From: Synergistaceae bacterium
GTDB taxonomy: Bacteria; Synergistota; Synergistia; Synergistales; Synergistaceae
Length of the DNA stretch: 51,803 nt
Assembly: GCA_045601305.1 (NCBI GenBank)
Contig: JAZRZG010000030.1
Location: forward strand, 1-51,803
Reading direction: 5' to 3'
The notes under the pieces: model-generated
Databases searched by the model: none
Told to the model about the DNA's origin: nothing
What the model saw: only the letters and a program-made list of their open reading frames with translations
Program-made: the position numbers and the translations under genes
Part shown: piece by piece, positions 22,200 through 38,169 of the stretch
How the letters are laid out: every line of letters starts with the position of its first letter
Position numbering within the stretch: the first letter of the stretch is position 1

Positions 22200-22274
22200 G
22201 GGCGGATAGCTCAGCGGGAGAGCACCTGCCTTACACGCAGGGGGTCGTAGGTTCGAAACCTATTCCGCCCACCA
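22200..22274 (+). tRNA. tRNA-Val (anticodon UAC)
   Basis: Acceptor GGGCGGA/TCCGCCC, anticodon arm CCTGC-CTTACAC-GCAGG, T-loop GGTTCGAAACC, CCA encoded. Confidence 0.9.
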
Positions 22275-22289
22275 TGACAACTTATTTGC

Positions 22290-22366
22290 GGAGCTGTAGC
22301 TCAGTCGGTTAGAGCGTCGGCCTGTCACGCCGAAGGTCGCGAGTTCGAGTCTCGTCAGCTCCGCCA
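22290..22366 (+). tRNA. tRNA-Asp (anticodon GUC)
   Basis: Acceptor GGAGCTG/CAGCTCC, anticodon arm TCGGC-CTGTCAC-GCCGA, discriminator G, CCA encoded. Confidence 0.9.
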
Positions 22367-22381
22367 TTTTGAGAAGTCAAA

Positions 22382-22457
<76 letters not shown>

Positions 22458-22472
22458 CTGATAAGAAAATTT

Positions 22473-22547
22473 GCGGAAGTAGCTCAGGGGTAGAGCACAA
22501 CCTTGCCAAGGTTGGGGTCGCGGGTTCAAATCCCGTCTTCCGCTCCA
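22473..22547 (+). tRNA. tRNA-Gly (anticodon GCC), copy 1
   Basis: GCGGAAGTAGCTCAGGGGTAGAGCACAACCTTGCCAAGGTTGGGGTCGCGGGTTCAAATCCCGTCTTCCGCTCCA, with anticodon loop TTGCCAA. Confidence 0.9.
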
Positions 22548-22570
22548 TTTTTTATAATATCGCGGTTGCT

Positions 22571-22645
22571 GCGGAAGTAGCTCAGGGGTAGAGCACAACC
22601 TTGCCAAGGTTGGGGTCGCGGGTTCAAATCCCGTCTTCCGCTCCA
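22571..22645 (+). tRNA. tRNA-Gly (anticodon GCC), copy 2
   Basis: 75/75 nt identical to 22473-22547, 23 nt downstream of copy 1. Confidence 0.9.
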
Positions 22646-22650
22646 AAATA

Positions 22651-22675
22651 ACAGGCGGGCAGCCTGTGTTTTTTT
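22651..22675 (+). terminator. Rho-independent terminator of the tRNA array
   Basis: acaggc-gggca-gcctgt hairpin followed by g plus T7. Confidence 0.75.
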
Positions 22676-22700
22676 GTCTAAATGCCATATCGTAATACAA

Positions 22701-22730
22701 ACGGACTGAATGATGTTCAGTCCGTCTTTT
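22701..22730 (+). terminator. second terminator-like hairpin
   Basis: Perfect 10-bp stem acggactgaa/ttcagtccgt, a 5-nt loop, then ctttt. Confidence 0.5.
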
Positions 22731-23157
22731 ATGCGCGGATGAAAAATCAGAAGGTATATTTTGCAAGATATTTTTTCAAAATCGTGTCAAAATGACACGC
22801 CATTGTCTATCTGCCGGAGTATAATATATTGTGAAAAGACAAACACCGAGAACGTAAACAGACGGTAAGCAGCGGGGGATGATAGACAGATATTGTCTAT
22901 TTGAGTTTTATGTTCAATCTGATATAATCAACTTGGACAGAAAGGCTTAGAAATGATTGTTGCCGACGTTCAGGCGCAGTATTCAGATACGAAGAGGTAT
23001 ATTTGCTAATGTGGGGCTTTTTTCTGCATTTATTGGTTTCGTTTATTATGTTATGTGCGCACCTGCTAATCGCAGTTTGTTCATTAGCTGTGCATCTTAT
23101 TGTTGTAATATTTACTTTTTTATTTCATCTGATATTTTAGCTTGATGATGAAAAATA

Positions 23158-23185
23158 TTGTAAAACTATCGTAACAAGTTATAAT
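23158..23185 (+). promoter_or_regulatory. candidate sigma70 promoter of the three-gene island operon
   Basis: TTGTAA (23158-23163), a 16-nt spacer, then TATAAT (23180-23185), about 120 nt upstream of the first ORF. Prediction by eye only. Confidence 0.4.
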
Positions 23186-23308
23186 AAATTCTGGAAACAC
23201 AGAAGCCTAAACCATGTGAGTGCAAAGAATTGTGGAAAAACAATGTCCATGTATTTTTTACACTTAAACTGATATGCTTGACAGAAAAATTGATCGGAGG
23301 TTGTTATT

Positions 23309-23896
23309 ATGGGTTTTTGGGATCTTCTTGAAGAAGTCGCCTCTGTCGGTATTGATTTACTGAATAAAGGTATTGAAGAAAGTATGCGCCGTCAGGAGAA
23401 GAATCTCCAGTCATACGCCAAAAAACATAATTTATCAAAAGAGCAGGTATCTCAGCTACGAGAAAAAATGCATCGCAGAACACACGAAGAGTTTGGAGCA
23501 GATCGAACAGGAATGGACTGTCGTCCTGAAGATTTTTCAATAAGCAGAGGGGATTATTTGAGCGATGCTGTCTCATCTGCGCCGGGAGAACCGGGTGTTT
23601 ATATACTTTATCTTTACGGAAGAGTAATGAAATGCGGGGTTGCAAGCTACGGGCAAGGAATTCGCTGGAGATTCACGCAGTATTACAATCTAAACTATGA
23701 CAACAAAGCAAGGTGCGGAGATTACTGGTCGGTAAGTCCTGAAAACAGGGACAGTATTACTGTGGCATGGCAAGCATGCCCGCCTCGTGTCTGTAATGAA
23801 CTGGAATACAAGTTGTTTAAGAAATATGGTAAAGGACCTTGGGCAAAACGAGCACCTGTAGCTTCGTACACAAATGAATGGAAATTATTGATTTAA
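23309..23896 (+). CDS. GIY-YIG-like nuclease-fold protein with about 95-aa helical N-terminal extension
   Basis: GGAGG 8 nt upstream of the ATG. The C-terminal half reads GVYILYLYGRVMKCGVAS..GIRWRFTQYYN...NELEYKLFKKYG. This reproduces the GIY-(9 aa)-YIG spacing, the conserved Arg and the distal Glu of GIY-YIG modules (compare the UvrC N-terminus). The N-terminal half is unassigned. Confidence 0.5.
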   Translation: MGFWDLLEEVASVGIDLLNKGIEESMRRQEKNLQSYAKKHNLSKEQVSQLREKMHRRTHEEFGADRTGMDCRPEDFSISRGDYLSDAVSSAPGEPGVYILYLYGRVMKCGVASYGQGIRWRFTQYYNLNYDNKARCGDYWSVSPENRDSITVAWQACPPRVCNELEYKLFKKYGKGPWAKRAPVASYTNEWKLLI

Positions 23897-23938
23897 CGAT
23901 TTGAATTTACCAATACAACTTTAGGTGAGGGGTATTTA

Positions 23939-26383
23939 ATGTTAAAATTTCTTCGCAGAAAATTTGACCGAAATTTCTTGAGTTTGAGATTGCATGAGCA
24001 GTTAGGATTGTTGTTTGCCTTTTATTTATTTTTCTATCTTGTATTCTTATTCATTTTAACTAACTTTGGAGGCAGTGCGCCAGAAGTTAAAAATTGGCGT
24101 TGGTGGGTATATGCACACATGGTGGATGCAGGTACCATCATTGAAAGTGCCAAGATTAACACACCTGTTGTTAATATCTGCGGCTTCTTAATGAATATAC
24201 TTAATATATTCCTTTTCGGCGGTATATTTATTTCGCTTTTCACGAACTTTTTCGAAGAATCCGCAAAAAGAGTCCATAACGGACAAGCGCGTGACAAAAT
24301 AAACAAAGAGCATCATGTTATCTTAGGCTGGGACGTTGTCGGTGCCTCCATAGTCCACAAATTGATTGCAAAGAAGAAAGACAAAAAACCGATAGTAATT
24401 TTGTCATCCCGTAATCCGGAGGATATTCGTGCCGATATTATGTCGTATGATAAAAGCGAGATTAAAAATCAAAAAAAACATGATCTGAGCGATAAGTTGA
24501 AAAAACAAATATATATTCTCAACGGTTCTTTTACCAACCGTGATGAATTGAATAGTGATGCGCTCATGCTGCGCAAAGCGGAAACAATCTACATTCTCGG
24601 CGAAAACAATAGCACAAGAAATGACAGTGATACGATTTCTACAGCCCTTCATTTCGCTAATCTGATTAATGATAAGCAAAAAATGAAAAATAACTCCACT
24701 ATTCCCTTGATAGCAGATATCCGCAGTTTTTCGATGTTCAGCCAATTAAAAAGTAAAGTAACAGGAAATTTGAACAACAATCAAGAGAACAATAAGAACA
24801 ATAAGAACAATAAGAACGATGCTTCGAAACCAAGTGGGAATAATTCGCCGCAAAGTGGCGAAGATTTAGGACACGATAAAGATTCAGGACACTATGCTGC
24901 TGTTTTTAACTTCTGTGAAAAGAGGGCAAGAAGGATTTGGAGCCATATTTCGGAAGAAAAAGATAAGATGTTCAGCCAATTAAAAAGTAAAGTAACAGGA
25001 ATTTTGAACAACAATCAAGAGGACAATAAGGATGCTTCGCAGCAAGGTGGCAAAGGTTCAGGCCACGATAAAGGTCAAGGACGCTATGATGCTGTGATTT
25101 TTAACTTCTATGAAAACTGGGCAAGAAGAATTTGGAGCCATATTCCGGAAGAGAAAGATGAGAAGTCTTATTATCCGCTGGCTTATGTCCCTGTTACCCA
25201 AAATAATTTTGTGCATCTGATAATTATAGGTTTCGGACAAATGGGGCAGGCGCTTGCAGTTGAAGCAGCGAGAGTCGCGCATTACGGCACAGGCAAAAAC
25301 ACGCGGATAACAGTTATAGACAACAATATGACAGAGCGTAAAGCAAAATTTGTTGCGACATTCGCGCTAAAGCATGATAAGGATAACGAAATTTACAGCT
25401 GGTATGAAGAAAACGGTTACAAAGCAGATGTTGAGTTTGTTTTTAAAGACAACAGCGCGGAAGATGAAGAAATACGCGAATTTCTTGTAGAAACGGCAAA
25501 AGAAGCTGAAGCAGGAAACCAGATTCCGACGCTTGCGATCTGTTTCTCAAAGCTTGACACAGCATTTGAGACAGCTTTGTCCCTGCCGATAGAATTCACC
25601 ACGGCAGAAGTGAAGTCGTTTACTGACAAGCGGATCCCTGTACTTCTTAGGAACGAAAGCGATTATAGAAGAAGCAGCAGCAGTAAGGATAGCCCTGTAA
25701 AGGATAATGATAAAGAAAGTGCAGAAAAGAAGGACGCTGCAGCGAACCGGGAAAAAGAACACAAAAGAGATATAGACAATATAGATTTGTTTGGAAATTT
25801 GAAAGAATGCACAGGTTTTGACGAGCAAATAGAAACATTTGCCAAGGTATTGAATATGCTGTATAAGATGTTTAATGATGATAATGGGGTGTTTAATAAT
25901 AATGAAGAGAGTAAGGCACCCGATGATGAAGATGATAAGGAGGATATAGAAAAACCTGACTATTGGTGGAAAAAAGCAGACGAATATAGCCGCTGGGCAT
26001 CCCGTCATCAGGCAGCGGCTTTTGTTGAAAGATTAAGGTCTATGGGATATAAGTTTGAAGCAAACACAGACATCTGTTTGAAGACATCTGAGCGTTTAAA
26101 TAGAGCTGATGTAGACGATTGGCAGCAGCGAGGCAAAGAGTTATTCGGCGATGATTTCGATAATAGACTCGGTATAGCCGAACATTATCGTTGGAGTGTT
26201 GAAAAATGGTTGTGTGGTTATCGGTATGATAAAGAGAAAGTTACTGAATTACACAAACATCCCTGCCTTATTGATTATTCTAAACTTAACGAGAAGAATA
26301 AAAATAATGACCTTCGTTCTACGGCACTTGCAAAATGGATTTTGGAAAACTATTGCGGCGTAACGTTAGACCGTAACGAGTAA
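23939..26383 (+). CDS. CASTOR/POLLUX-like 2TM pore + two Rossmann (RCK/TrkA-N-like) domains + C-terminal RyR domain membrane protein
   Basis: SD GGTGAGGGG. TM1 at about aa 22-43. Pore-helix-like WRWWVYAHMVDAGT. TM2 at about aa 78-104. Then HHVILGWDVVGASIVHKL (aa 125-) and a second FVHLIIIGFGQMGQALAVEAA. The C-terminal AEHYRWSVEKWLCGYRYDKEK..HKHPCLIDYSKLNEKNKNND fits the RyR-domain (PF02026) pattern as recalled. Confidence 0.6.
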   Translation: MLKFLRRKFDRNFLSLRLHEQLGLLFAFYLFFYLVFLFILTNFGGSAPEVKNWRWWVYAHMVDAGTIIESAKINTPVVNICGFLMNILNIFLFGGIFISLFTNFFEESAKRVHNGQARDKINKEHHVILGWDVVGASIVHKLIAKKKDKKPIVILSSRNPEDIRADIMSYDKSEIKNQKKHDLSDKLKKQIYILNGSFTNRDELNSDALMLRKAETIYILGENNSTRNDSDTISTALHFANLINDKQKMKNNSTIPLIADIRSFSMFSQLKSKVTGNLNNNQENNKNNKNNKNDASKPSGNNSPQSGEDLGHDKDSGHYAAVFNFCEKRARRIWSHISEEKDKMFSQLKSKVTGILNNNQEDNKDASQQGGKGSGHDKGQGRYDAVIFNFYENWARRIWSHIPEEKDEKSYYPLAYVPVTQNNFVHLIIIGFGQMGQALAVEAARVAHYGTGKNTRITVIDNNMTERKAKFVATFALKHDKDNEIYSWYEENGYKADVEFVFKDNSAEDEEIREFLVETAKEAEAGNQIPTLAICFSKLDTAFETALSLPIEFTTAEVKSFTDKRIPVLLRNESDYRRSSSSKDSPVKDNDKESAEKKDAAANREKEHKRDIDNIDLFGNLKECTGFDEQIETFAKVLNMLYKMFNDDNGVFNNNEESKAPDDEDDKEDIEKPDYWWKKADEYSRWASRHQAAAFVERLRSMGYKFEANTDICLKTSERLNRADVDDWQQRGKELFGDDFDNRLGIAEHYRWSVEKWLCGYRYDKEKVTELHKHPCLIDYSKLNEKNKNNDLRSTALAKWILENYCGVTLDRNE
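24734..25165 (+). repeat. intragenic tandem duplication (234-nt unit + 198-nt unit)
   Basis: Copy 1 (24734-24967) and copy 2 (24968-25165) both begin atgttcagccaattaaaaagtaaagtaacagga (33 nt identical). Both end in ...RRIWSHI(S/P)EEKD. Copy 1 carries extra N/K-rich sequence. Confidence 0.9.
24787..24817 (+). repeat. 9-nt microsatellite (gaacaataa) x3.4, in frame
   Basis: gaacaataa gaacaataa gaacaataa gaac, encoding the NNK NNK NNK run inside copy 1 of the duplication. Confidence 0.95.
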
Positions 26384-26422
26384 ATACAGCAAATAAAGTA
26401 ATCTGCGGGAGGAAGAAAGACA

Positions 26423-29400
26423 ATGACAAATGATAGGTATGATGTTTTTATAAGCTGGGCACACCAGGATGGTCGAGACAATATTGGAAATGTAAAAAAA
26501 GCAATTATTGAGGAGCATCAAAATCAGTATCCAAAAGAAGAAGAATTGAAGATATTCATGGATACAGATATAGAAGATGCTCAGGATTGGAAGGCTCGTA
26601 TTTCAGATGAGCTTAGGAAATGTCAAGTATTTCTATCGATTCTCAGCCCAAACTATTTTGGCTCGAAATTTTGTACGCGCGAGATGTCCCTTTGGAAGAA
26701 TCATGAGATTCGGAACAGTTTATTAAACAAAGCTACTCTGCCTGTCTATTTTATCAAATTGGATGAAGATCCATATAAATCTGAAGATGTAAATGTAAAC
26801 AAAGCATTTATACAGCAGATTCATGGTGAACTTAAGCCCTGGTTTGGTAATCAGAGGACGTATTCTTATGAAGAAATCAAAAATTGTATCAAAGAATCTC
26901 ACATTATTGATACACTCAAAAAACGATTTGACGACATAAAAGAGATTAATAAGAGTAACAAACATAGTAACCTGCCTGACCCTGATCCAGATTTTGTCGG
27001 CAGAGTACAGGAGATAAGTGATATTAACGCTGAAATTAAGCATCACATTGTACTTTTGCGCGGTGAGGAAGGTATTGGAAAAACCTCGGTTGCCCTTGCG
27101 TATGCGTCAGCATATGCTGGTGAGTATCCCGGGGGTAGATATATGATTGACTGTCAAAACGCAAAGAATATTCCTGAGGCTTTTGCGCATCTTCTCATCA
27201 ATGGAAAACTTGTTGCAGATAACCTTGGCATTACAACTAATTATGTGGGAGCTGATGATAACGAATACATATTAAATAGCAAAATTGTTCCAGCCCTTAC
27301 TAAGGCTAATGGGAAAAAACTTATTATTCTTGATGATGTGACTGAGCTTAAAATGTTGCAAACTGAAGTTGTAAATAAGTATCTTAATTGGCGGAGAGAG
27401 GCTTGTGTTGATATTATCGCAACAACGAATGTTGATGGAGCAGAGAAAGTCCAATACAAAGATACAGACCCTGTTTATGGGTACAATATAGATCCGTTGT
27501 CCGAAGTTGATGCTTTGGAAATGCTGCGGAATGAACGTGATTTCTCCGAAAAAAGCAATGATGAAGACTATGCCAAAAAAATTATTGAGCGTCTTAACCG
27601 TCATGCGGGGGATCTTAATGAAGCGGCAAACAGACTTAAGCAAGAAGCAGAGTTAACATATGATAAATTGTGTGAATATATTCTTAATCACACAATAGAC
27701 GGATTGCGCAAACGTGTTGTAGAAAAAATGGAGGAGGATGAAAAAAACATAGCTGAATATGCGGCCTTGCTGCCTGCTGACTGTGTGCATATAGACTGGC
27801 TCAAAGAATTATTTGTTCTTCAAAAAATCAGCCGTGAAAGAGTAACTGAAAATATTGAAAATGCATGGGAAAATATCCAAAAAAATCCCAAAACGTTACA
27901 ACATACCGGTCGTGGTCATAGTCAAATGGAGAAAAATTACAGTGCGTATATTGAAGCGTCCATGGAAAATCGTAAGAAAAATAAAAAACTAAAAAAACTG
28001 GAAGAACTGATTATAAAGCGTATAAACAATAATAAACTTGGTGTGGAAGAAATTAATTCTATATACCAGACCATTAATAAGTGGTGGAATAAAAAATATT
28101 TTGTTTTTGCTGCCAGTCTAATAGCATCTGATAAATTGTATGAGGCTGTTAAAATCTCCGGTTCAATCGCAAGAAAATATTTTGAACTTGTTAATAAAAT
28201 TTACGATAGTCATGAAATTGAAAAAAATAAGTTGGATGAAAAAACTCCGGGCTTGATGGAATGTATTGCCAAATGCCTTTCGGAATTGGGTAAATATAAA
28301 AAAGCCAAGGAAATTACCGAGAAAATTTTCAAAAGGAAAGAAAAAATAGACGCAGATCTTGAAAGCACACTGCTGGCTGAAAGTGCCTATGCAGATTGTT
28401 TGTTTGATTGTGGTGAATATAAAGAAGCCAATAAACATTATGAAAAAATATTTAAAAGTCGGTCAAAACTTAATGCGAACAATCCTCATACAATAAACGC
28501 TGAAAGTGCTTTGGCTAGAAGTTATGCAAGTATTGGTCAGCTTGAAGAAGCTTTGAAACACTATAATAAGGTGGTACGGTTAAAAGAGAAACTGCATATG
28601 GATTCCCTTTGGGCAAAACTGGAACTTGCGATTGGTTATTCTGATGTCGGAGATTATAAAAATGCTTGTAAGATATGTGAAAGCAGTGTTAAAACTGAAA
28701 CCGATGAATTGAGACAAATAAGCGCAAAAAGTGTTTTGGCAGGTATTTATACTGTTAGCGGTAAATACACTGACGCGAGGAATCTTAGAGATGAAATATT
28801 TAAATTTAGAGAAGAAAACTTAGGTAAAAAACATCTTCTTACGCTTAGAACGCAGGGACGATTGGCTGCCAGTTATTCTATGCTTGGCGACTATAAACGA
28901 GCTCGTGACTTGCGTCAAAAAGTATTAGATGCAAGGAAAGATATTTTTAGTAAAGACCATCCGGAAATACTTAAAGCACAATTAGCCTTAGCCGCAAGTC
29001 ATTCTGAGTTGGGCGAATATAAAAAGGCTCATGATCTGCGGAAAGATGTGTTAACAGCGAGACAGAAGAAAAAGCTTCCTGACGACCATCCTGATATACT
29101 CAAGGCAAAATTAGCTTTAGCTGTCAGTCATACGGAGTGTGGGGACTACATTAAATCATTAAATTTGCGAGAAAAAATCTACGACACTGTGGCTGCAAAA
29201 GACTATAATCCACTCACTCCTGCTGTTGCTTTGGCACTTGCAGACAGTTATTATAATTTAGGTAAGTATAGTGCTGCGCGTAGAATATATGAAAATATAC
29301 GAAATTTTTATTGTAACGAAACCGAGGCTAAAAATAAACGTGGGGTCTTTAAAGGTTTGCGCGTAAAAAATATGGCGCCGTACATCATTGCGACAGATAA

Positions 29401-29944
29401 AAAACTTGCGGACTGTGATTTTGCCGAAAAATATTATCAGAAAGCTGAGGAAAAATATAAATTAATACTGAACGTGCTTGAAAAACAATTTGGCAAGGAT
29501 CATCCGGAAGCGCTTAGAATCAAAACATGTGTTGCAAACTGCTATTCCGCTCTTGGGCAGTATGATGAGGCTTTAAAGAGCTACGAGACAATAGAAGAGG
29601 AGTTAAAGGTCAAATTAAAAGATGAGAATCATCCCGATAGAATTTGTGTATTGAGCGGAAAGGCACACAATTATTTTATGAATGGAAAGTATGAAGATGC
29701 CTTGAAGCTTCGAAAGGATATTCTTGAAAAACGGAGAAGAATCTTGGGAGAAGATCATCCGGAAACACTTAAAACCAGAAGACGTGTGGCTGATTGTTAT
29801 TTAAAGCTTAAAAAATACAATGAGGCACTAAACATCTATAATGAAATTTTGGATAAAACAAAAGAGAAATTGGGTGAAGAACACCCGTGTACAAAAAAAG
29901 TGCAGCAAGGAATTGCTGAAGCGGCAAAAATGCTGAAAGGTTAA
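26423..29944 (+). CDS. TIR domain / NB-ARC (STAND P-loop NTPase) / TPR-repeat protein
   Basis: SD GGGAGGA. N-terminal YDVFISWAHQD...FLSILSPNYFGSKFCTREMSLW (TIR, with candidate catalytic Glu87 at 26681-26683). Walker A GEEGIGKTS (K220). Walker B KKLIILDDV, then IIATTN. The C-terminal roughly 570 aa are kinesin-light-chain-type TPRs (repeated LG.Y..A....(K/E)(V/I)...R...LG..HP(D/E)(I/T)L). Confidence 0.8.
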   Translation: MTNDRYDVFISWAHQDGRDNIGNVKKAIIEEHQNQYPKEEELKIFMDTDIEDAQDWKARISDELRKCQVFLSILSPNYFGSKFCTREMSLWKNHEIRNSLLNKATLPVYFIKLDEDPYKSEDVNVNKAFIQQIHGELKPWFGNQRTYSYEEIKNCIKESHIIDTLKKRFDDIKEINKSNKHSNLPDPDPDFVGRVQEISDINAEIKHHIVLLRGEEGIGKTSVALAYASAYAGEYPGGRYMIDCQNAKNIPEAFAHLLINGKLVADNLGITTNYVGADDNEYILNSKIVPALTKANGKKLIILDDVTELKMLQTEVVNKYLNWRREACVDIIATTNVDGAEKVQYKDTDPVYGYNIDPLSEVDALEMLRNERDFSEKSNDEDYAKKIIERLNRHAGDLNEAANRLKQEAELTYDKLCEYILNHTIDGLRKRVVEKMEEDEKNIAEYAALLPADCVHIDWLKELFVLQKISRERVTENIENAWENIQKNPKTLQHTGRGHSQMEKNYSAYIEASMENRKKNKKLKKLEELIIKRINNNKLGVEEINSIYQTINKWWNKKYFVFAASLIASDKLYEAVKISGSIARKYFELVNKIYDSHEIEKNKLDEKTPGLMECIAKCLSELGKYKKAKEITEKIFKRKEKIDADLESTLLAESAYADCLFDCGEYKEANKHYEKIFKSRSKLNANNPHTINAESALARSYASIGQLEEALKHYNKVVRLKEKLHMDSLWAKLELAIGYSDVGDYKNACKICESSVKTETDELRQISAKSVLAGIYTVSGKYTDARNLRDEIFKFREENLGKKHLLTLRTQGRLAASYSMLGDYKRARDLRQKVLDARKDIFSKDHPEILKAQLALAASHSELGEYKKAHDLRKDVLTARQKKKLPDDHPDILKAKLALAVSHTECGDYIKSLNLREKIYDTVAAKDYNPLTPAVALALADSYYNLGKYSAARRIYENIRNFYCNETEAKNKRGVFKGLRVKNMAPYIIATDKKLADCDFAEKYYQKAEEKYKLILNVLEKQFGKDHPEALRIKTCVANCYSALGQYDEALKSYETIEEELKVKLKDENHPDRICVLSGKAHNYFMNGKYEDALKLRKDILEKRRRILGEDHPETLKTRRRVADCYLKLKKYNEALNIYNEILDKTKEKLGEEHPCTKKVQQGIAEAAKMLKG

Positions 29945-30095
29945 GAAGCGCAGAGATTAAGAAGTATAAAATTTATATATGCGTTGAACATAGTGGAGGG
30001 GTACCATAAATGTACGGTGCTGTGAATGTACAATAGCAGTGTACTGCTAAAATTTGCACGGTGCAGAGAAAGAATAATGGAAAATCACAATAAAA

Positions 30096-30127
30096 ACGGC
30101 TTGGGAATGATCCCAAGCCGTGATTTT
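30096..30127 (+). terminator. Rho-independent terminator (likely end of the island operon; bidirectional)
   Basis: acggcttggga-atga-tcccaagccgt 11-bp stem followed by gatttt. There is an A-run upstream. Confidence 0.7.
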
Positions 30128-30826
30128 GACCTAAATTTCCATTTGGGTACAGAAAACAACAGGTATCAGTATCGTTTTCGCAGAAAAATATCAAAAATAG
30201 ATTTCTGACTTCGATATCCAATTCCTGAAGGAGAATTTTGAACCGGCAGTGTTTCATTGCTTTTTTGTGTTTCAGCCTTCGGCAATTTTGGCTAAAGCCT
30301 TGAAAAACCCTGATTCTGACTGCATTCCCGTACAGCCTGCCCGCTTTGCCGCCCTAAAACGAGTTAAGTGCGAAGTCCGCAACCCGCCGCTGCCACCGGC
30401 AGTCGTTTGAGCCCTAAGCTCTGCGAGAGGCGCGACCCGGAGGACCGTTAATCAAATCGTATCCACTCCGAAAATAATCCCGTCCGGCACTGACACGTAA
30501 GCGCAACCTACGATTTTTAATAAAACTGCAAATGTAAAGACCGATGTACAGTGTGGGTGAAACTTATGCGCGGTCACGCTCCCGCCGCTGTACCAAACAA
30601 TGCAGGCTGAGGGGTAAACCCGACAGCGAGAAAATATTTTACTCTTATTTTCTACAATGTCAATACCTTTTTTCAAAAAAAATGTAAAAAATCTGCAAGA
30701 AAATTGTATAGTCTGCACGGAGGCAGTAATAGCAAGGGTTTAGAAGAGCCAATGACTGATAAGAAGCAGTAAAGACCATTCCAAGAAAGATCGACATTTA
30801 GGATTCAAAATTCAATACCGGTACGC

Positions 30827-30836
30827 GGGGGGGGGG
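30827..30836. repeat. G10 homopolymer tract
   Basis: cgc-gggggggggg-caac in non-coding DNA about 200 nt upstream of feoAB. Confidence 0.95.
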
Positions 30837-30995
30837 CAACAGAGTTGTCTCGACAGGCAATTTACGGCTGTTGACAAAAATTGAAATGTAAAAATCGGGG
30901 TGTAATACGGCTGTATGTCTGCGCATTACAGGGTGGGCATATCAAAACTTACGGAACTGTCTGCGTAATTTTACGTTTTTCTGCGGCTTTGGCAG

Positions 30996-36607: not shown

Positions 36608-36714
36608 CGGCACAGCCGACGTTTTGCCAGAAAAACATATAAGCTGAAAGTGTTTGTATATGTTAAGATTATTCGGACTTGCAAAAATGCGAGAAGATGT
36701 TATTATTCTTAATG

Positions 36715-36750
36715 TAAAAACAGGTGACAAATCACCCGAATTTTCATTAG
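36715..36750 (+). repeat. 36-nt repeat, copy B
   Basis: taaaaacaggtgacaaatcacccgaattttcattag. It ends 12 nt before the ATG of the DUF4143 ATPase gene. Confidence 0.9.
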
Positions 36751-36762
36751 GTGGTGCCCGGC

Positions 36763-38016
36763 ATGGAAATAAAACGCGACAAATATCTTGAAAAATTGCT
36801 TGTTCGCCGCAATAACGGCATGATAAAAATAATTACAGGAATAAGACGCTGCGGAAAGTCATATCTGTTATTCAGACTTTTCGCTGATAAACTGCTTGCT
36901 GACGGAATTGACGAAGAACATATAATACGAATGGAACTGGACAGATATGAAAATAAAGACTTTAGAAATCCTGACGCGCTGTATTCTTTTGTAAAAAATA
37001 AACTCAAAGACAGGGGACAGTATTATCTGCTGCTTGATGAAGTTCAGCTGCTGCCTGACTTTGAATCTGTACTCAACAGCTTTCTTCATATTCCCAATCT
37101 TGACGTTTATGTTACGGGCAGCAATTCAAGATTTTTGTCATCGGACATAGTTACAGAATTTCGCGGGCGCGGTGACCAAGTAAGAGTAGCTCCGCTGACT
37201 TTTGCCGAAATATATAATTTTTCCGGCAAACCGTATCAGCAGCTTCTGCCCGAATTTTTACGCTTTGGCGGAATGCCTTTAGTTGTTTTGATGGAGAGTG
37301 AAGAGCAGAAAAAAGAATACTTGCAGAGCTTGTTTGAGAATGTATATATAAACGATGTGGTTGAAAGGAACGACATAAGGCTGAAAGAAGACTTGGACGA
37401 CCTTGTTAATGTGCTGGCATCTGTGACAGGCTCAGTAACGAACGCGCACAAAATCGCTGATACCTTTAAATCCAAAAAACAAAGCAGCTGCGGTTATTTT
37501 ACAATAGCGAAATACATTGATTTTCTAAAAGACGCTTTTATGATATCGGAAGCGAAAAGATACGATATTAAAGGCAGACGCTATATAAACGCAGGACGCA
37601 AATATTATTTTGCCGATCACGGTTTACGCAACGCAAGGCTGAATTTTATGCAGCAGGATAAATCATTTCTGATGGAAAATCTTGTGTATAATGAGCTGAA
37701 AAGCCGCGGGTACAGCGTAAATGTCGGTGTTGTTGAACGGACTGAAAGAAATGCTGAGGGCATAAGGCAGAAAAAACAATATGAAGTTGATTTTATTGCC
37801 GAACGTGCGGAAAAAAAATACTATATACAGTCATGTATGCAGATTAACACAACAGAAAAATTGGAACAGGAAGCTGCATCTCTCAAATATATAGACGATT
37901 CCTTCAGAAAAGTAATAATACGGCAGGATTTAGCCTTTTCAGCGCCGGATGACAGCGGAATCTACCATCTTAGATTAGAGGATTTTCTGCTGAAAGAAAA
38001 CAATTTGGACTATTAA
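36763..38016 (+). CDS. AAA-family ATPase with C-terminal DUF4143-type domain (COG1373-like)
   Basis: Walker A GIRRCGKSYL and Walker B YLLLDEVQ. Size and layout are typical of the 'ATPase, DUF4143' proteins common in accessory DNA. ATG 36763 (MEIKRDKYL) is preferred. Confidence 0.7.
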   Translation: MEIKRDKYLEKLLVRRNNGMIKIITGIRRCGKSYLLFRLFADKLLADGIDEEHIIRMELDRYENKDFRNPDALYSFVKNKLKDRGQYYLLLDEVQLLPDFESVLNSFLHIPNLDVYVTGSNSRFLSSDIVTEFRGRGDQVRVAPLTFAEIYNFSGKPYQQLLPEFLRFGGMPLVVLMESEEQKKEYLQSLFENVYINDVVERNDIRLKEDLDDLVNVLASVTGSVTNAHKIADTFKSKKQSSCGYFTIAKYIDFLKDAFMISEAKRYDIKGRRYINAGRKYYFADHGLRNARLNFMQQDKSFLMENLVYNELKSRGYSVNVGVVERTERNAEGIRQKKQYEVDFIAERAEKKYYIQSCMQINTTEKLEQEAASLKYIDDSFRKVIIRQDLAFSAPDDSGIYHLRLEDFLLKENNLDY

Positions 38017-38169
38017 AACAGCATTGCGCGTTTTACCGAAATAAAGGCGCGTATTAATCAGGACAATATACGATACGGCAATTTTTGTGTAGTAAAGACG
38101 ATAAAAGCACGGGGGCACGGAAGAGGCGCACAAGGCGCGGAAGACTTAATAAATAACAATATTTTGTAT

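Follow-up and report, generated by a model that had tools for sequence, protein, structure and literature searches.

Phage proteins that carry a ryanodine-receptor (RyR) domain of the Repeat12 type bind 2'cADPR and 3'cADPR, two isomers of cyclic ADP-ribose (cADPR), at nanomolar affinity, and one of two such proteins also hydrolyses both molecules (PMC13232231; 10.64898/2026.06.04.730250; 2026 preprints). Binding of canonical cADPR was shown in the study of one of them, RyR Tad (10.64898/2026.06.04.730250). The contact residues are H75, W78, H100, and D117 in RyDEP (PMC13232231); the matching residues in RyR Tad are H129, W132, H154, and D171, and the mutants H129A/W132A, H154A/K147A, and K170A/D171A were tested there (10.64898/2026.06.04.730250). 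A screen for Thoeris immune systems, in which TIR genes have separate effectors, explicitly dropped TIR proteins of the Avs type (10.64898/2025.12.03.692087). Here we describe three adjacent genes (g1, g2, and g3) in a 51,803-nucleotide (nt) stretch of DNA from a Synergistaceae bacterium (assembly GCA_045601305.1, contig JAZRZG010000030.1, positions 1 to 51,803 of the forward strand; hereafter, the window). Two of them encode a channel-like protein with a Repeat12-type RyR domain (g2) and a TIR-STAND-TPR protein (g3).

We estimate at roughly 55% the probability that g2 and g3 act as an abortive-infection module of two genes, located on an imported island, in which a TIR product gates the RyR-domain channel. 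The pair is best read as a hybrid of Thoeris and Avs. An earlier note on this stretch, made from the sequence alone, had taken all three genes for one candidate immune system; its observation is confirmed here and its interpretation is partly supported. The coordinates and a terminator scan agree with its description of three plus-strand open reading frames (ORFs) separated by hairpin-free gaps of 42 nt (g1–g2) and 39 nt (g2–g3). The genes and the two features of g2 discussed below are as follows.

23309-23896, + strand: g1, 195 amino acids (aa), with a GIY-YIG-fold domain at about aa 76-176 (nt 23534-23836)
23939-26383, + strand: g2, 814-aa channel-like protein with two transmembrane helices (2TM), RCK domains, and an RyR domain
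24733-25166, + strand: in-frame tandem duplication and low-complexity insert in g2 (about aa 265-407), absent in relatives
26183-26311, + strand: predicted ligand pocket of the g2 RyR domain (H749, W752, H774, and D791)
26423-29944, + strand: g3, 1173-aa TIR-STAND-TPR protein

The channel-like protein

The domains that the earlier note assigned to the three proteins were recovered by Pfam, by phmmer and, for g1 and g2, by Foldseek searches with AlphaFold2 models. The membrane part of g2 consists of a first transmembrane helix (TM1, aa 18-43), a pore helix and loop (53-71, containing VDAGT), and a second helix (TM2, 76-113). The cytoplasmic part comprises RCK1 (about 122-290), RCK2 (about 420-575, with GFGQMG...D461), and an RyR domain of the Repeat12 type (about 670-814). 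The Pfam RyR model (PF02026) scores 28.3 bits against a gathering cutoff of 27.4, and there are weak matches to TrkA_N and to a Slo-like RCK. The model of g2 (predicted local distance difference test, pLDDT, 78.6) has a helix and strand pattern that agrees with 2TM and tandem RCK domains. Its best structural match is GsuK (E = 4.9e-7), including the NAD-bound chain 4gx2, followed by MthK, Slo1, the CASTOR/DMI1 gating rings, and RyR3 Repeat12 (6uhi and 6uhh). With the C-terminus alone, phmmer finds human RyR3 Repeat12 (7e-8) and an RyR-like protein of B. thetaiotaomicron (2e-3), and phrog_5154 matches aa 747-791.

The four predicted ligand residues, H749, W752, H774, and D791, are spaced 0, +3, +25, and +42, the same spacing as in RyDEP and RyR Tad, and 63 of 72 g2 relatives retain the complete set. 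RCK2 retains GFGQMG and the nearly invariant D461, and RCK1 is without its glycine motif. The pore loop reads HMVDAGTII, with (T/V)D(P/S)G in relatives; the T(V/I)GYG potassium filter is absent, and judging by its sequence the pore would not be K+-selective. We take this loop to be reminiscent of the ADAGNH/ADSGNH filter of CASTOR/DMI1, which serves here as a lead.

An exhaustive search places g2 in a family of 1048 clusters (50% identity, E up to 0.001) of proteins that are typically 600-750 aa long; a word-indexed homologue search gave only four weak matches, and none of the plasmids in PLSDB carries a homologue. The duplication in g2 spans about 66-78 aa in frame, with copies 82%-97% identical in nucleotides (direct repeats D2, D3, and D6). 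The accompanying insert is rich in Asn and Lys and is absent in the 10 homologues compared, and the model falls below a pLDDT of 50 at aa 295-317 and 351-379. The second of the duplicated copies keeps the family motif FNFYENWARRIW, and the first has drifted to FNFCEKRARRIW.

TIR and RyR genes beside the channel family

We scanned species-representative genomes with an alignment of 11 sequences and obtained 74 loci, 71 of them with a g2-like ORF; with one further locus from a Kiritimatiellae genome (L001), this gives 72 g2-family loci. The search patterns were taken from the closest relatives of g2, and most of the loci come from gut and rumen Bacteroidota. Genes were called by a same-strand operon walk, and TIR genes were sought with an iterated hidden Markov model built from three seeds (g3 and two neighbours); single-sequence phmmer with the TIR or NTPase region of g3 gave no match in the loci.

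We found 33 TIR ORFs in 24 of the 72 loci, and 32 of these lie on the strand of the g2-like gene. In 10 loci the TIR gene shares the strand of the g2-like gene and is at most 150 nt away; in 23 it is at most about 4.1 kb away. Ten of 10 TIR calls checked by Pfam match TIR_2 (E from 7.7e-12 to 2e-22). The TIR-bearing loci belong to at least five other phyla: Bacteroidota, Planctomycetota, Cloacimonadota, Hydrogenedentota, and Verrucomicrobiota. As a control, g1-family loci of at least 8 kb have no TIR gene (0 out of 31; P = 7e-5, Fisher's test). The TIR partners are of several kinds: short TIR proteins (some with Lcl_C), SIR2-TIR, TIR-TPR_12, and TIR-nSTAND1-HEAT. Immediately 3' of g2-like genes we find TIR-nSTAND1-HEAT (L081), TIR-TPR_12 (L017, Planctomycetota), and, at two loci (L016 and L021), DUF4062-STAND-TPR. 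DUF4062 is a TIR-like NADase that is reported to yield linear ADP-ribose (ADPR) (10.64898/2026.05.01.722283). In total, a g2-like gene has a TIR or DUF4062 gene nearby at 26 of the 72 loci. The pairing of g2 with g3 is conserved in kind.

In the earlier note, the pore/RCK/RyR protein was a possible receiver of what the TIR protein produces. This is supported by the adjacency at 26 loci and by the binding of cADPR isomers to Repeat12-type domains (PMC13232231; 10.64898/2026.06.04.730250). It had also proposed a search for RyR/2TM-RCK genes next to TIR-STAND or GIY-YIG genes; the TIR half of this association recurs, at 24 of 72 loci, but the GIY-YIG half does not, with a g1-like gene at none of the 72.

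A second recurrent partner is a stand-alone RyR-domain gene (<300 aa), which accompanies the channel gene at 31 of the 72 loci (L064:9307-9597, with Pfam RyR at 3e-38; L027:8797-9093; L039:7307-7609; L020:9663-9926; and about 27 more). A single cluster of such RyR genes supplies the immediate upstream neighbour at 22 loci; the examples read are about 100 aa long. These proteins could be host counterparts of the phage cADPR sponges and hydrolases. The operon in the window has no stand-alone RyR gene. Small genes lie upstream in other g2 operons, and we considered g1 as their counterpart but rejected it: They encode RyR-domain proteins, and g1 fails the RyR model.

Several individual neighbourhoods are worth recording. 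The closest g2 relatives, both from Synergistaceae (L013:9335-17880 and L011:3209-11754), run 8 nt into the beginning of a complete Wadjet operon, which encodes DUF3375/JetA, DUF4194/JetB, JetC, and JetD; no TIR gene lies beside them in flanks of up to 10 kb on each side. A recurrent type of operon in Bacteroidota (L053:9527-19377, L060:7731-17250, L028:9506-16794, and L040:2326-7327) holds a g2-like channel gene, one to three paralogous TPR_12 proteins, and a TIR protein of 376-380 aa. One of these TPR proteins (L053:11699-14011) has an N-terminal signal peptide, and the TPR_12 proteins of the four operons have no P-loop. The Kiritimatiellae locus, from a metagenome-assembled genome (L001:3497-14800), has a divergent g2-like gene in which the ligand residues are not conserved (KYHN), in a same-strand cluster with a 1195-aa Response_reg/TCAD9 protein, a His_Phos_1 phosphatase, and two unknown proteins (675 aa and 815 aa).

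The TIR-STAND-TPR protein

The g3 protein begins with a TIR domain (aa 6-170) that carries the catalytic E87 within SKFCTRE, continues with a STAND NTPase (Walker A GEEGIGKT with K220; Walker B LIILDD), and ends in a TPR_12/TPR_10 array at about 600-1170. Pfam supports TIR_2 (2.5e-9), TIR (2.7e-6), and TPR_12 (1.2e-62), with AAA_16 and nSTAND3 weak. The TIR domain aligns with the plant TIR 7xoz, the Glu included, and homologues of g3 carry TIR, NB-ARC, and TPR domains. Membership in the FxSxx-COOH system was ruled out (TPR model 288.7, cutoff 300; FxsC N-terminal model 42, cutoff 130). At one locus (L131:4737-11008), the gene after a TIR-TPR homologue of g3 encodes a TPR-CHAT (caspase-like) protein; this pair is reminiscent of type IV Thoeris, yet its TIR partner resembles proteins of the nucleotide-binding leucine-rich repeat (NLR) kind.

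The GIY-YIG-fold protein

The model of g1 (pLDDT 88.6) shows an N-terminal helical hairpin and a C-terminal GIY-YIG fold, with the GIY-YIG domain of UvrC as its best structural match (1yd5, E = 4.7e-4, TM 0.72), followed by Hpy188I, T4 EndoII, and Eco29kI. Sequence searches with g1 gave no match in Pfam, PADLOC, NCBIfam, or PHROG. The family comprises about 100 clusters, mostly 41%-71% identical and mainly from gut and other metagenomes, and none of the phages in IMG/VR has a homologue. In its members an MGFxDxLG peptide at the N-terminus is joined by a variable helical linker to a conserved C-terminal region of about 110 aa, in which G96, V97, Y98, K108, G110, R121, Y125, N146, and E166 are invariant. 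The Pfam GIY-YIG model is found in only one of 34 members (E = 0.077), and the family profile matches UvrC weakly (E = 0.6), with Y98, R121, and Y125 on catalytic positions. In UvrC these would presumably be Y19, R39, and Y43. The titles of the matching UvrC structures name Y19F, Y29F, Y43F, and N88A; at the place of the second catalytic Tyr (UvrC Y29), the g1 family has the invariant K108. The invariant E166 and N146 are candidate equivalents of UvrC residues.

The earlier note's view of the three genes as one conserved system fails on the neighbourhood counts. A g1-like gene occurs at none of the 72 g2-family loci, and a TIR, RyR, or g2-like gene at none of about 50 other g1-family loci. The g1-g2-g3 trio is not conserved as a system, and the g1 family is independent and widely scattered. 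Its members follow a Colicin-DNase/DUF6985 pair, stand beside LRAT or PDDEXK_2 genes and, at three loci (L087, L093, and L117), lie near large TPR_12 proteins. We regard g1 as most likely an unlinked small conflict gene or an optional accessory rather than a core part.

Two members of the g1 family have unusual surroundings. At L087:799-6246, the g1-like gene lies between a gene for a 1080-aa STAND-TPR protein and a 400-aa ORF; since this ORF matches aa 37-433 of the neighbouring STAND-TPR protein at 78% identity, we read it as a truncated duplicate of the NTPase, and the arrangement suggests cassette-like rearrangement around g1-family genes. Protein P0091 is fused C-terminally to a Cas1 fragment (Pfam Cas_Cas1, 1.8e-21); either an insertion into cas1 or a chimera of the assembly could account for this.

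Proposed mechanism and alternatives

If g2 and g3 act together, g3 would be the sensor, with its TPR array picking up a cue from the invader and its STAND NTPase then oligomerising. The clustered TIR domains would convert NAD+ to an ADP-ribose-derived product, either a cADPR isomer or ADPR itself. The effector would be g2, four copies of which would assemble into a 2TM channel; its two RCK/Rossmann domains would make up a cytoplasmic gating ring, and its pocket of the RyR Repeat12 type would lie at the C-terminus. Docking of the TIR product in that pocket would make the RCK ring open a pore that is not K+-selective, the membrane potential or ion homeostasis would collapse, and the infected cell would no longer support the invader. 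RCK2, whose GxGxxG...D site is intact, may add sensing of NAD(H), as in GsuK, and the stand-alone RyR proteins of related operons may be host buffers or hydrolases that set the threshold. In this scheme signal production, ligand binding, gating, and protection by g2 and g3 are what we infer; we take g3 to be a signaller, not a mere NAD+ depleter, because it is paired with a dedicated membrane effector. The gene order, folds, motifs, and recurrent g2-TIR neighbourhood are observed directly. Further support comes from the setting of the pair on a low-GC island beside tRNA genes and from the surroundings of homologues: The closest g2 relatives adjoin Wadjet jetABCD, and a TPR-CHAT effector gene lies after one g3 homologue.

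The main rival is that g3 is a self-contained, Avs-like NAD+ depleter and g2 an unrelated nucleotide-regulated channel, the two being neighbours through clustering in defence islands. We consider this unlikely, but several observations that weigh against the two-gene module would fit it. The closest homologue of g3 (P0106) is a single gene amid housekeeping genes, and because it stands alone, TIR-STAND-TPR proteins would appear able to act as self-contained NADases. At 46 of the 72 g2-family loci neither a TIR nor a DUF4062 gene lies within 10 kb, some of these loci follow housekeeping genes such as dnaG and cysS, and the g2 relatives beside Wadjet are without TIR. The module is also weakened by the partners themselves: Two of the TIR-like partners are DUF4062 proteins, reported as makers of linear ADPR and not of a cyclic signal, and in several Bacteroidota operons the TPR partners have signal peptides and are not of the STAND type. 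The best homologue of g2 is only 35% identical, and g2 and g3 are both singletons at 90% identity, so the exact operon is without a close relative. Finally, the insertion and duplication of about 100 aa between RCK1 and RCK2 might impair g2. What speaks for a functional link is that at 10 loci a TIR gene stands within 150 nt of the g2-like gene and on its strand, with at least four TIR architectures represented, that the TIR association overall spans five phyla, and that the cADPR-contact residues are conserved across the g2 family. A related scheme keeps the link to TIR activity and changes the signal: NAD(H) bound to RCK2 would keep the channel shut, consumption of NAD+ by the TIR domain would open it, and the RyR domain would have another role, such as sensing ATP or ADP as in RyR3 Repeat12. 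The match to GsuK with its NAD-bound chain, the intact GFGQMG and D461 of RCK2, and the DUF4062 partners, reported as plain NADases, are in line with it. We think it improbable all the same, as the cADPR-contact residues of the RyR pocket are conserved far beyond what is expected of a dispensable module, and extra stand-alone RyR genes in the same operons fit signal buffers best.

The proposal that all three genes form one system, with g1 as a nuclease that is a second effector controlled by g3, or a regulator, draws on the 42-nt gap between g1 and g2 without a terminator, on the GIY-YIG fold of g1 with most of its catalytic residues, and on the three g1-family loci near large TPR_12 proteins. 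The complete lack of g1-like genes at g2-family loci, the reverse lack of TIR, RyR, and g2-like genes at other g1 loci, and the highly varied contexts of g1 make it a doubtful account, even though g1 is probably co-transcribed with g2 and g3 at this locus. There is also a slight chance that the module has decayed or is not immune, with g2 inactivated by its duplication or engaged in ordinary stress or ion signalling. The internal duplication and insert are unique to the g2 of the window, PADLOC gives no match, and the island holds neither an integrase nor another defence gene. Set against this, all three ORFs are intact and long in DNA of 37% GC, the duplication is in frame with a second copy that retains the family consensus FNFYENWARRIW, and the island is a variable region of foreign composition.

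A wider version of the two-gene module, which we advance tentatively and which may well not hold, would make the g2 family a class of bacterial channels gated through a Repeat12-type RyR pocket by ADP-ribose derivatives of TIR or DUF4062 proteins. The family would then be a new Thoeris/NLR effector class with the stand-alone RyR proteins as built-in buffers, RyDEP and RyR Tad would be captured host sensors, and the whole would be a prokaryotic immune precedent for cADPR-RyR signalling in animals. If the module is real, TIR immunity has a new class of effector, a ligand-gated RCK channel with an RyR Repeat12 sensor, and TIR proteins of the STAND (NLR-like) type signal to a separate effector in the manner of the TIR-type NLRs (TNLs) of plants, beyond burning NAD+. 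The newly found phage RyR-domain anti-Thoeris proteins would gain a meaning on the host side, and there would be a simple bacterial model of Repeat12 pockets that gate channels on cADPR-type ligands. Such gating is in question for animal ryanodine receptors as well, whose cADPR-to-RyR signalling the module would echo. The g2 family is sizeable, and the hypothesis ties together the phage anti-Thoeris RyR proteins, NLR-like sensors, and the question of cADPR and RyR in animals.

Operon and genomic island

The three genes lie on an island of about 8.3 kb, whose layout outside the genes is given by the following features.

22200-22645, + strand: tRNA array Val-Asp-Phe-Gly-Gly, left edge of the island (ARAGORN, Rfam)
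22646-30994, no strand: low-GC variable island, about 8.3 kb (GC profile; homology to L094 from 30995)
23158-23185, + strand: sigma-70 promoter candidate TTGTAA-16-TATAAT (10 of 12 consensus matches; no better than background)
30096-30121, no strand: 11-bp G+C-rich hairpin 3' of g3 (terminator good on the minus strand, weak on the + strand)

The GC profile, ARAGORN, and Rfam bear out an AT-rich block directly after a tRNA array: GC is 0.34-0.41 over 23-30 kb and mostly 0.44-0.53 elsewhere in the window, the other low-GC stretch being at 36-38 kb (0.39-0.40). DNA homology with a related genome (L094) restarts at 30995, just 5' of feoAB, and upstream of feoAB that genome is unlike the window. 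Because the homology restarts only there, we regard about 22.65-30.99 kb as a foreign or variable segment. We read the island as imported; it is foreign in composition and a variable region. Housekeeping genes border it on both sides: ftsEX and the genes for an M23 and an S41 peptidase on the left, and feoAB, bmp, ychF, and bipA on the right. Neither an integrase nor a further defence gene was found in it. Integration targeted to the tRNA genes was considered and rejected, with neither an integrase gene nor a direct repeat of a tRNA 3' end.

Each gene has its own purine-rich Shine-Dalgarno sequence, as the earlier note had said; read directly, these are GGAGG for g1, GGTGAGGGG for g2, and GGGAGGA for g3. 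Its two transcription signals fared less well. The promoter at 23158-23185 exists as a candidate, but the region has no excess of promoter-like sites (29, against 24.1 ± 5.3 in shuffled sequences), and an equally good candidate lies at 22901-22928. The hairpin after g3, taken for a strong terminator, is real, but it scores as a terminator of the minus strand; on the plus strand it is trailed by GATTTTG alone. The terminator scan found no plus-strand terminator-like hairpin in 23092-30245, and the next such site after g3 is at 30245-30261.

The leader of the island has two further features. At 22795-22930 there is a perfect 7-bp inverted repeat, ATAGACA-N5-TGTCTAT (about 22884-22902), with a related TTGTCTATCTG at 22804, and at 22957-23145, 5' of g1, a small, very hydrophobic ORF with an inner start at MWGFFLHLLVSF...; these could be regulatory or encode a small toxic peptide. 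On the other side, about 1 kb of noncoding DNA between the island genes and feoAB contains a run of nine G at 30825-30836. Elsewhere in the window, 36608-38136 is a second low-GC insertion relative to L094 (GC about 0.39-0.40), between ychF and bipA, which holds an AAA_14/DUF4143 ATPase gene (36751-38016).

Comparison with known systems

As the earlier note supposed, the gene combination is apparently not a named system: It has no significant PADLOC match and no description in the literature searched, in which PF02026 appears only in the RyDEP paper (PMC13232231) and one unrelated work. In PADLOC, g3 matches ThsB1 alone (E = 0.013) and g2 matches nothing; in NCBIfam, the only Thoeris match of g3 is to the type III ThcB4 model (E = 0.011). 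Neither protein significantly matches the Thoeris effector models compared, which do not include those of types V-XI.

The g2-g3 pair shares with Thoeris (types I-XI) the arrangement of a TIR gene that adjoins a separate effector, itself a nucleotide-sensing and membrane-damaging module (10.64898/2025.12.03.692087), and many related loci have a short ThsB-like TIR partner of 290-590 aa (e.g., L018, L019, and L062). Conceptually, the module is closest to type X, which pairs a TIR with the "ion channel" ThsK, and to the membrane-effector types II and V (10.64898/2025.12.03.692087). It differs in that its TIR domain is fused to a STAND NTPase and TPRs and is not a stand-alone sensor of the ThsB type, and in that the g2 sensor is an RyR Repeat12 domain, not SLOG, Macro, DUF2270, DUF6650, or SLATT. 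In the portion of the supplements of the Thoeris-screen preprint that was searched, neither "RyR" nor PF02026 was found (10.64898/2025.12.03.692087). The TIRs of type X form another cluster, from Bacillus and Vibrio, and by phmmer they have no direct match among the ORFs of the g2-family loci; ThsK itself may still be a relative of g2. A tblastn search of plasmids for the type X effector, with the TIRs of Table S1 of that preprint, led to three neighbourhoods that proved to be type II (macro-domain). Neither of the two RyR preprints mentions a host RyR-domain effector, and one of them shares an author with the Thoeris screen; homology of ThsK and g2 is weakly disfavoured because of this.

With Avs/AVAST and bacterial NLR-like proteins, g3 shares the N-terminal TIR domain, the STAND module with Walker A and B motifs, and the C-terminal TPRs; the Avs1-5 models are not among the PADLOC matches at E up to 1, and the pairing of the TIR protein with a dedicated membrane effector sets it apart. 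In g2, the two-helix pore followed by tandem RCK/Rossmann domains is that of GsuK, MthK, Slo1, and CASTOR/POLLUX/DMI1, but g2 lacks the TVGYG K+ filter, has an extra C-terminal RyR domain, and has lost the glycine motif of RCK1. Animal ryanodine receptors likewise are channels with a nucleotide pocket of the Repeat12 type, in an unrelated pore architecture, size, and organism, and binding of cADPR to their Repeat12 domain itself is unproven (PMC13232231).

The resemblance to RyDEP and RyR Tad is the closest at the level of the pocket, with the PF02026 Repeat12-type fold and identical H/W/H/D residues and spacing. Those two proteins, however, are viral, small, and soluble, and they block immunity by degrading or sequestering 2'/3'-cADPR, whereas the RyR domain of g2 is host-encoded and fused to a channel, and for this reason it would read the signal, not destroy it. 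The host's stand-alone RyR genes in related operons may hold the buffering role. The pair of g2 and g3 is a credible and apparently undescribed variant of TIR-signalling immunity with an RyR-domain-gated channel as its effector.

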